DNA of 64,000 bases from Escherichia phage Turkey5, in the sequence record PQ471516.1. One strand, given 5' to 3'. This document shows positions 6,358 through 6,632 of this stretch, piece after piece (position 1 is the first letter of the stretch; every line of letters starts with the position of its first letter). The notes under the pieces were generated by a model that saw only the letters and a list, made by a program, of their open reading frames with translations, ran no database searches and was not told the DNA's origin. The position numbers and the translations under genes were made by a program.

Positions 6358-6381
6358 TTCGAAAATAAAGAAAAAAAGTTC

Positions 6382-6409
6382 TTGACAAGTTAAAATGATG
6401 TGATATAAT
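6382..6409 (+). promoter_or_regulatory. sigma70-type promoter P1 (TTGACA - 16 bp - TGaTATAAT extended -10) with A-rich UP-like tract
   Basis: TTGACA at 6382-6387 and TATAAT at 6404-6409, TG at -15/-14, A-tract 6361-6380. Confidence 0.6.
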
Positions 6410-6435
6410 GAGCATCACGAAGTAAGTTTTCAAAA

Positions 6436-6448
6436 TCACATGATGTGA
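6436..6448. promoter_or_regulatory. perfect 13-bp palindrome TCACATgATGTGA between P1 and P2 (possible operator)
   Basis: 6+1+6 inverted repeat; its half-site ATGTGA also immediately precedes each TATAAT in the promoter family. Confidence 0.3.
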
Positions 6449-6473
6449 GATTGAAAAAAAAGAAAAAAAGTTG

Positions 6474-6508
6474 TTGACAAGGTTGAACGATGTGATATAA
6501 TGTTCAAC
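6474..6508 (+). promoter_or_regulatory. sigma70-type promoter P2 with 7-bp inverted repeat bracketing the -10
   Basis: TTGACA 6474-6479, 16-bp spacer, TATAAT 6496-6501; GTTGAAC (6482-6488) and GTTCAAC (6502-6508) flank the -10. Confidence 0.6.
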
Positions 6509-6564
6509 ATCAAGACGACGAAGTGATTGACCTTTTTAAACACACGGATGATTCATGAAGTAAC

Positions 6565-6607
6565 AAAGGAACTGATAAGTTAAAAATACTTTTAACACAG
6601 TTCCTTT
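6565..6607 (+). promoter_or_regulatory. stable stem-loop (10-bp stem, 23-nt loop) in leader upstream of the MoxR-like gene; attenuator or small structured RNA
   Basis: AAAGGAACTG ... CAGTTCCTTT perfect inverted repeat, followed by a weak T-run ACTTTTGCC. Confidence 0.35.
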
Positions 6608-6632
6608 ACTTTTGCCATCGGATTGGTATAAT
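6605..6632 (+). promoter_or_regulatory. candidate promoter P3 (weak -35, extended -10 TGgTATAAT)
   Basis: TATAAT at 6627-6632 with TGG at 6624-6626; -35 is poor (TTTACT), about 38 nt upstream of ATG 6671. Confidence 0.4.

Follow-up and report, generated by a model that had tools for sequence, protein, structure and literature searches.

The closest described counterparts of the promoters considered here come from phage CBB, in which an analysis with MEME predicted three promoter classes (PMC5259590). The first, located in the early region, comprises RpoD-like promoters that have UP-like elements; the second, termed 'divergent RpoD-like' and found in GAP32 too, combines a classic −10 element with a TGAAACG −35 element and lies upstream of DNA-synthesis genes and a gp55-like gene; the third is a late motif, ATAAATA (PMC5259590). 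Table S6 of that study gives 18 sites of the form TG(A/G)AAC(G/A)-N12-(A/G)TGnTATAAT (PMC5259590). An architecture of four elements (UP, −35, TGn and −10) has been described for the early promoters of phage T4 (PMC2613000), and the related phage PA5oct has been reported to depend on host RNA polymerase (RNAP) (PMC7318152). Here we analyse 64,000 nucleotides of Escherichia phage Turkey5 (PQ471516.1; this whole stretch is called the window), an Asteriusvirus jumbo myovirus of the Rak2/PBECO4 group, and in particular the region 6361–6670 upstream of an AAA ATPase gene, where two promoter modules that we call P1 and P2 lie in tandem. We relate these, and three further promoters named by their first positions (9552, 36425 and 59316), to the whole assembled genome of vB_EcoM_JNE01 (OR670491.1, Asteriusvirus, 355,583 bp), on which all genome-wide motif counts were made per strand. 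The family of promoters is genuine and conserved, it exceeds what a first-pass annotation of the window had stated, and its elements are of an expected, ordinary kind.

The class to which these promoters belong resembles the divergent RpoD-like class of CBB and GAP32 in its extended −10 element, (A/G)TGnTATAAT, in the constant spacing between this element and a variant −35 element that keeps 'AC', and in preceding the same types of gene. The promoter at 59316 reads TGGAACAAAGTTGATTTTGGTGCTATAAT and CBB Porf_235 reads TGGAACGACCTAAAAAAATGTGCTATAAT, in the same register and with the same gene downstream; Porf_244 and Porf_235, with TGGAACG..GTG(G/C)TATAAT, both match it in register and motif. 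The class differs from that of CBB in having A at position −13 in almost all cases and T(G/A)GACAA, not TGAAACG, as the −35 element, with P1, P2 and 36425 carrying the full TTGACA. A CBB-type TGAAACG element was searched for in JNE01 at several spacings and no such class was found, T(G/A)GACAA being its equivalent there. Since the class is already among the predictions for CBB and GAP32, it is a previously predicted feature that this phage clade conserves.

Further parallels lie outside the clade. With the early promoters of T4 the class shares the joint presence of an A-rich upstream element, a −35, a TGn and a −10 element, as well as large numbers, an orientation that follows the early genes, conserved start regions and a strength that is predicted to be very high. 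The T4 −35 consensus differs, and T4 switches between promoter classes by Alt ADP-ribosylation and AsiA/MotA. Extended −10 promoters of the galP1 and cysG type in E. coli likewise place TG at −15/−14 next to TATAAT and tolerate degeneracy of the −35 element, and the TGTG of P1, P2 and 36425 fits the TRTG of the Gram-positive −16 region. In E. coli, the spacers of TGn promoters are usually 18 bp or longer (PMC2613000), whereas the spacer of the class described here is strictly 16 bp, and neither A at −13 nor G/C at −16 is a known σ70 contact. This is the design expected for a T4-like phage without an RNAP of its own, and so no concept is changed by it. Asteriusvirus does gain a usable promoter map, in which the TGATATAAT class is set apart from an early-cluster class and from late sites of ATAAATA type, and P1 and P2 become candidates for very strong, compact E. 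coli promoters.

Results

The explanation that best accounts for these promoters, to which we assign a probability of about 0.8, is that they form a pre-late class of host σ70 type that includes the tandem P1/P2 module. P1 (6382–6409) and P2 (6474–6501), both on the plus strand, each combine TTGACA, a 16-bp spacer and aTGTGa TATAAT, and each matches the σ70 consensus at 12/12 positions and carries an extended −10 element, which in P1 is of the TRTG type. The two modules are built alike, with an A-tract followed by TTGACA, the 16-bp spacer and TGTGATATAAT. The UP-element-like A-tract of P1 (GAAAATAAAGAAAAAAAGTTC) occupies 6361–6381 and that of P2 (GAAAAAAAAGAAAAAAAGTTG) 6453–6473, the latter being kept in relatives and in the Klebsiella phage K64-1. 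Transcription is predicted to start at about 6414–6417 from P1 and at 6507–6509 from P2, inside a conserved ACATCAAG. Downstream lie the AAA ATPase gene (6671–8002; PHROG 'ATPase', E 7e-105) and then a gene for a DUF2201/VWA protein.

The other three promoters are also on the plus strand. That at 9552–9579 reads TGGACA-N16-GTGATATAAT, matches 11/12 consensus positions, and lies directly 3' of a terminator hairpin (9519–9539) and 5' of a 90-aa gene (ATG at 9614) that heads a block ending in thymidylate synthase. The promoter at 36425–36452, with TTGACA, a 16-bp spacer and ATGTGATATAAT (12/12 consensus positions), is in a divergent intergenic region 40 nt 5' of a gene (36493–38778) whose product is a ClpA/ClpB-like AAA+ protein. 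A second divergent intergenic region holds the promoter at 59316–59344 (TGGAACA-N12-GTGCTATAAT), which precedes a gp55-like gene (59400–60239; phrog_12791, 'sigma factor for late transcription', E 1e-150). Mre11-like (Metallophos) and SbcC-like genes follow, in the order of T4 genes 55/47/46, and the JNE01 annotation gives only 'hypothetical protein' for the gp55-like gene. Neither 36425 nor 59316 has a clear A-tract, unlike P1 and P2. All five promoters are intergenic and each is directed at the next gene.

A motif scan placed these five promoters exactly where the first-pass annotation had put them, and TGa or TGc stands immediately 5' of the −10 in each, as that annotation had also held. 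Its further statement that four of them share one full block with a 16-bp spacer stands for P1, P2 and 36425, which have ATGTGATATAAT in common, and fails for 9552, which reads CAGTGATATAAT. In the window GTGATATAAT occurs in 5 copies, all on the plus strand, against 0.23 expected; TGnTATAAT occurs 11 times (4.7 expected) and perfect TTGACA-N16-18-TATAAT 5 times (0.15 expected). A sixth GTGATATAAT, at 736, is intragenic, has no −35 element and is probably due to chance.

Genome-wide, the family extends far beyond these five promoters. JNE01 carries TGATATAAT 48 times on the plus strand and 5 times on the minus strand, GTGATATAAT 25 times and once, respectively, and sites that match at least 11/12 consensus positions 121 and 9 times; the full ATGTGATATAAT is rare, with 4 copies. 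About 26–31 of the 48 plus-strand TGATATAAT copies fall in intergenic DNA, which makes up about 9% of the genome. The claim of a promoter family was sound and understated, in that the family numbers dozens across the genome, is strongly strand-biased and intergenic, is kept in relatives and was predicted in CBB and GAP32. We derived the class logo from 31 aligned JNE01 TGATATAAT copies, in which the T and G of TG are invariant by construction. It gives the consensus T(G/A/T)(G/A)ACAA-N11-(G/C)TGATATAAT, with an A-rich stretch at −43 to −38, a degenerate −35 element that keeps ACA, a strict 16-bp spacer, and G/C at −16 (28/31 promoters) followed by TGA and then TATAAT. By the JNE01 annotation, class members are found 5' of ClpP, ClpA, helicase, primase and gyrase B neighbours, of tRNAs and of the late sigma gene. 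Current Asteriusvirus records call nearly all genes 'hypothetical protein' and annotate zero promoters.

Two other kinds of site are set apart from this class. In JNE01, a small-gene cluster at 305–330 kb has promoters of the form TTGACA-N9-AGTACTG-(N0-1)-TATAAT, with ACATCAAG and then a 5' stem-loop after the −10 element, and the ACATCAAG start motif is thus common to P2 and to these early-cluster promoters. Intergenic regions of structural genes carry an ATAAATA-type motif instead. Within the window, an ATAAATA late-promoter-like motif lies at 30768–30774, about 30 nt 5' of a plus-strand gene of the structural region (ATG at 30807); it fits the late motif of CBB and GAP32, and the intergenic region that holds it has no σ70-type site.

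P1 and P2 are, as judged from their sequences, a tandem duplication of one promoter module. They form a 62-nt direct repeat (D1) with 82% identity and a 92-bp period, which spans the A-tract, −35 element, spacer, extended −10 element and first transcribed bases. The number of modules varies: most relatives have two, K64-1 has one and SP27 has three, namely P1, P2 and a 94-bp duplicate of P2 (SP27 sequence 326–542 compared with 6382–6501 of the window). The order of elements at the ATPase locus is P1, hairpin, P2, leader, terminator, P3 (a third promoter, described below) and gene. In 8 Asteriusvirus relatives and in K64-1 (Alcyoneusvirus) the A-tract, TTGACA(A), the 16-bp spacing, ATGTGATATAATG and (A/G)CAT(C/A)AAGAC are all kept, and the ATGTGATATAATG of P2 is invariant. 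In the 8 Asteriusvirus relatives P1 keeps its −35 element and a 16- or 17-bp spacing and differs slightly in the −10 element (TACAAT) or at −13. At 36425, AATGTGATATAATG is invariant in 4 relatives, three of which have TAGACA as the −35 element, and at 9552 the core TGGACA/GGGACA-N16-(G/A)TGATATAAT is kept in relatives that have diverged in the spacer. Across the three comparisons (P1/P2, 36425 and 9552, with 8, 4 and 5 relatives, respectively) the cores are conserved and the spacers diverged.

We also note a number of sites that touch on the promoters without belonging to the five. Perfect TTGACA-N16-TATAAT occurs at 42663–42690 (plus strand) and 50445–50472 (minus strand), inside huge minus-strand structural genes; one of these sites is antisense to its gene and the other is sense with TGt. 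Because only 0.15 perfect sites are expected in the window, both may be real internal or antisense promoters. Terminators and promoters also occur as cassettes: the 9519–9539 hairpin, the stem of which has changed in a compensatory way in relatives, lies with its T-run directly 5' of a promoter. At JNE01 61426, 8090, 167811 and 225411 a terminator hairpin follows or encloses the −10 element, so that transcripts there would start within the 3' arm and would escape termination.

Discussion

We propose that host RNAP containing σ70 would read this class through up to four recognition elements. In each module of P1 and P2 a UP-like A-tract is followed by a −35 at consensus, a spacer of 16 bp, an extended −10 of TRTG type, a −10 at consensus and a start region that is conserved. 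Binding energy would come from the extended −10 (TG, with TGTG fitting TRTG), which would offset a variable −35 and so allow it to vary, and in P1, P2 and the ClpA promoter all four recognition elements would be at consensus, as in T4 early promoters. The class would serve pre-late genes, namely those for the AAA ATPase and VWA protein, ClpA and ClpP, replication genes, tRNAs and the gp55-like late sigma factor. The genes 3' of class promoters are non-structural, and a late sigma gene, which cannot itself depend on late transcription, fits a pre-late role when it stands under such a promoter. TGn/−10 promoters have been reported to resist AsiA-type inhibitors of σ region 4 (PMC2613000), which would offer a rationale for a pre-late class that is active after early shut-off. 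From the sequences we infer recognition by the E. coli σ70 holoenzyme, promoter strength, start sites and pre-late timing.

Several observations weigh against reading the class in this way. Literature searches for Asteriusvirus promoter, transcript or start-site data found nothing specific. The class has features beyond the known σ70 contacts, namely A at −13 (A in 48 class copies, the other bases in 16, 8 and 6), G/C at −16 and G at the second position of the −35 element (−33), and these may leave room for a phage-specific reader. Moreover, JNE01 encodes a σ70-family protein of its own (265,958–266,920; 320 aa; WOL22956.1), which is annotated as hypothetical and matches Pfam Sigma70_r2 and Sigma70_r3 above threshold, and so host σ70 is not the sole candidate reader. 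There are just two occurrences of TCACA-N3-TGTGA in JNE01 and both adjoin class promoters, and inverted repeats around class promoters are somewhat enriched (mean best arm 5.8 against 5.1).

It is possible, though we hold it to be well short of an even chance, that the main product of P1 and P2 is a short non-coding RNA or an attenuated leader and that P3 supplies the ATPase mRNA. Between P2 and P3, on the plus strand, lies a hairpin (6565–6613) that consists of AAAGGAACTG, a 23-nt structured loop and CAGTTCCTTT, followed by ACTTTT; its 10-nt arms are 100% complementary (I4). With its stem and T-run, and with the stem maintained in relatives, it would qualify as an intrinsic terminator. RNAs ending there would be about 105 nt long from P2 and about 197 nt from P1, and read-through might be regulated as at λ PR'-tR'. 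P3 (6605–6632, plus strand; TTTACT, 16-bp spacer, TGg TATAAT) shares sequence with the tail of the terminator and stands 5' of the ATPase ribosome-binding site as the promoter proximal to that gene; its −10 element is conserved (92% identity across relatives), the relatives having a 17-bp spacer and having lost the TG.

The order of promoter, leader, hairpin with T-run and P3 is kept in all Asteriusvirus relatives and in K64-1, which is in favour of a short RNA. So is the conservation of the hairpin region, which is 93% identical across relatives and thereby exceeds the rest of the leader (6521–6560, about 88%) and both the P2 start region (6502–6520) and the 5' untranslated region before the ATPase ATG (76–77%). 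The hairpin folds better than shuffled sequence (z = −3.2), and its counterpart in phage G17 is an annotated ARNold terminator. K64-1 has lost one base from both stem arms (GGACTG/CAGTCC), which is the only compensatory evidence for this stem; covariation within the genus was not found because the sequences are invariant there, so that K64-1 alone is informative. A leader peptide at 6547–6582 was considered and rejected, as it has no Shine-Dalgarno sequence and its open reading frame (ORF) is broken in A4, the loss of this small ORF being consistent with a non-coding leader. Against a short RNA, a search of 6350–6700 with Rfam at permissive thresholds gave only sub-threshold chance matches, covariation within the genus was lacking, and the stem, at −9.2 kcal/mol by ARNold, has only moderate stability and is followed by an interrupted T-run, so that termination may be weak.

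λ PR'-tR' is the known system to which this arrangement can be likened. PR' is a constitutive promoter followed by a terminator and yields the 6S RNA; there too a strong promoter meets an intrinsic terminator after some 100–190 nt, ahead of genes that could be served by read-through. The ATPase locus differs from it in having a further promoter, P3, 3' of the terminator, and no antiterminator or qut-like site was identified. A short RNA is compatible with recognition of the class by host σ70, and the two are not exclusive.

A combination of two of the elements discussed here seems to us unlikely. It would make the class, whose purine-rich −35 variant stands at a rigid 16-bp spacing, a dedicated middle class in the recognition of which a phage factor assists, either the σ70-like protein or a remodeller of σ region 4, and would make the RNA of about 100 nt that ends at 6565–6613 of the ATPase locus, as the main product of the tandem promoters, a regulatory RNA or an antitermination checkpoint; both features are conserved from Asteriusvirus to Alcyoneusvirus.

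Slightly less credible again is phage-specific recognition by itself, in which the phage σ70-family protein, or host σ70 remodelled by a phage factor, would recognise (G/C)TGATATAAT and T(G/A)GACAA at their fixed 16-bp spacing, and the class would be a true middle class analogous to the MotA/AsiA-dependent promoters of T4. The 320-aa JNE01 protein, to which CBB has a similar gene, would be a candidate for this role. The class is also distinct from the early-cluster TTGACA-N9-AGTACTG-TATAAT promoters, it lies 5' of replication, Clp and late sigma genes, and its preferences for non-consensus bases at −13, −16 and −33 are conserved; in 18 promoters the CBB counterpart retains a −35 variant of its own, TGAAACG. 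Nevertheless, the block is a textbook σ70 extended −10 element, and the perfect TTGACA of P1, P2 and 36425 implies that host RNAP would need no helper. E. coli TGn promoters with 3–5 of 6 matches in the −35 element are normal (PMC2613000). In an alignment with E. coli RpoD, the phage protein has neither the WW of region 2.3 nor equivalents of the TG-reading residues H455 and E458, and it probably reads a different motif.

The weakest proposal, and in our judgement a most improbable one, is the operator model that goes back to the first-pass annotation, in which a dimeric phage or host regulator bound to palindromes of the ATGTGA/TCACAT type over or beside the −10 element represses or times the promoters. 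Three inverted repeats do exist where that annotation had placed them, and just one of them is built from the half-site named. This is the perfect 13-bp palindrome at 6436–6448 (TCACAT-G-ATGTGA), which is the core of an imperfect 31-bp palindrome on the plus strand at 6427–6457 (TTTTCAA aa TCACA tga TGTGA ga TTGAAAA), with 15-nt arms that are 87% complementary (I2). It lies within the P1 leader, 5' of P2, and folds as a 7+5 bp RNA hairpin. Conservation of the paired positions in the Asteriusvirus relatives (TTTCAA/TTGAAA and CACA/TGTG persist) can be cited in favour of an operator. Unpaired bases and the outermost T vary without compensation, which speaks against one, and no covariation was found in 6427–6457 among the Asteriusvirus relatives. 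The right half of the palindrome resembles the promoter's own ATGATGTGATAT / CAAGTTAAAATGATGTGATAT (D3, 76% identity) and the leaders of P2 and K64-1, which are longer, can be aligned with that of P1; the half-site shared with the promoter is, for these reasons, most simply read as a relic of the module duplication. K64-1 itself has a single promoter and no such palindrome.

A search for relatives of this palindrome disclosed no family in the window. There is one exact copy of TCACATNATGTGA, and allowing up to 2 mismatches gives 6 against 6.9 expected, an outcome that the first-pass annotation itself had named as refuting its reading. The pair of TCACA-N3-TGTGA sites in JNE01 exceeds our own estimate of about 0.36 expected, and both are within 70 bp 5' of a class −10, which would suit an operator. 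The second of them, at 8060, abuts the class promoter at 8090 and has its left arm in a lineage-specific gene, and the PBECO4 orthologue keeps the promoter without the palindrome. The position of the palindrome is also inconsistent, at about +26 of P1, −66 of P2 and −39 at JNE01 8090. Pairs of ATGTGAT...ATCACAT do occur at the P1 and 36425 promoters, the ATCACAT at 36476 being accounted for by a recurrent ACAT-GGAG ribosome-binding context. Near class promoters ATGTGA was counted 10 times against 2 expected, a figure that we believe to be too high, since in a tandem pair the −10 element of each promoter is counted for the other as well, and TCACAT 4 times against 1.9, which is not significant. 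A CRP site at 6436–6448 was rejected because the half-sites face the wrong way: TCACA-N3-TGTGA is opposite to TGTGA-N6-TCACA, and the latter is absent from JNE01.

The remaining two repeats fare no better as operators. EcMJ, CMSTMSU and A4 lack the one that brackets the P2 −10 (plus strand, 6482–6508, with arms at 6482–6488 and 6502–6508; GTTGAAC-N13-GTTCAAC), and PBECO4 has it in imperfect form. Across 31 class promoters such brackets are at chance, with a mean arm of 4.29 against 4.06–4.19 in shuffled or swapped controls and arms of at least 6 at two of 31 sites (2.3 expected). The plus-strand palindrome at 9558–9574, ATCACTGaaaCAGTGAT (ATCACTG/CAGTGAT), lies inside the spacer of the 9552 promoter; JNE01 reads ATCACTGAAAGCGTGAT there, so that the palindrome is broken, and other relatives have unrelated spacers. 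The region 6361–6632 holds 4 inverted repeats with arms of at least 6 and loops of up to 20, against 2.3 ± 1.6 in dinucleotide shuffles, 22% of which reach 4. The repeats at class promoters are heterogeneous, with no common sequence, and many are terminators of upstream or neighbouring genes. Control of the −10 through palindromes is thus not borne out, and the palindromes are likely to be mostly chance or RNA hairpins. One is unique to this phage and one appears to be a by-product of the duplicated module, and the only conserved inverted repeats are predicted to act at the RNA level, as the P1-leader hairpin and the P2–P3 terminator.

The setting of these promoters was mapped from the JNE01 annotation and the ORFs of the window. 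Genes lie on the plus strand from position 1 to about 12034, with large structural genes on the minus strand 3' of this block, interrupted by short plus-strand islands that begin at 30807, 36493 and 59400. No tRNAs were found in the window, and an Rfam scan of it gave no gathering-level match. Over a 2-kb stretch around P1 and P2 the identity with JNE01 is 99.7%, and with about 35 other Asteriusvirus genomes (PBECO4, 121Q, SP27, G17 and A4 among them) 83–87%. At full length the window is 99.0% identical to JNE01 and lacks, near 52380–52410, about 737 bp of that genome (136,555–137,323), so that it represents a distinct, 99%-identical isolate, a close relative under a different record. A BLAST comparison of the window with JNE01 also revealed paralogous segments (19303–21378 and 24838–26403, 75–84% identity) inside large minus-strand structural genes.

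Lastly, we note an excess of one short palindrome. The 8-bp CAGTACTG has 35 copies in the window (for example at 1136, 6000, 14961, 14980, 36581 and 63810) against 1.4 expected, or about 25-fold, and with 233 copies in JNE01 against about 4 expected it is the most over-represented 8-mer of that genome. For AGTACT the JNE01 count is 1000, where about 120 would be expected (8.4-fold); the palindromic hexamer that ranks second is only 2-fold over-represented, and several other 6-bp palindromes, including CCATGG, AGGCCT, AGCGCT and CCCGGG, are absent. A literature search on CAGTACTG found only primer sequences. Both CAGTACTG and AGTACT are present in all reading frames and in intergenic DNA, and at 21 early-cluster promoters the palindrome stands in the fixed register TTGACA-N9-AGTACTG. 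The excess of CAGTACTG is the most unusual observation that we made, and it is incidental to the promoters.

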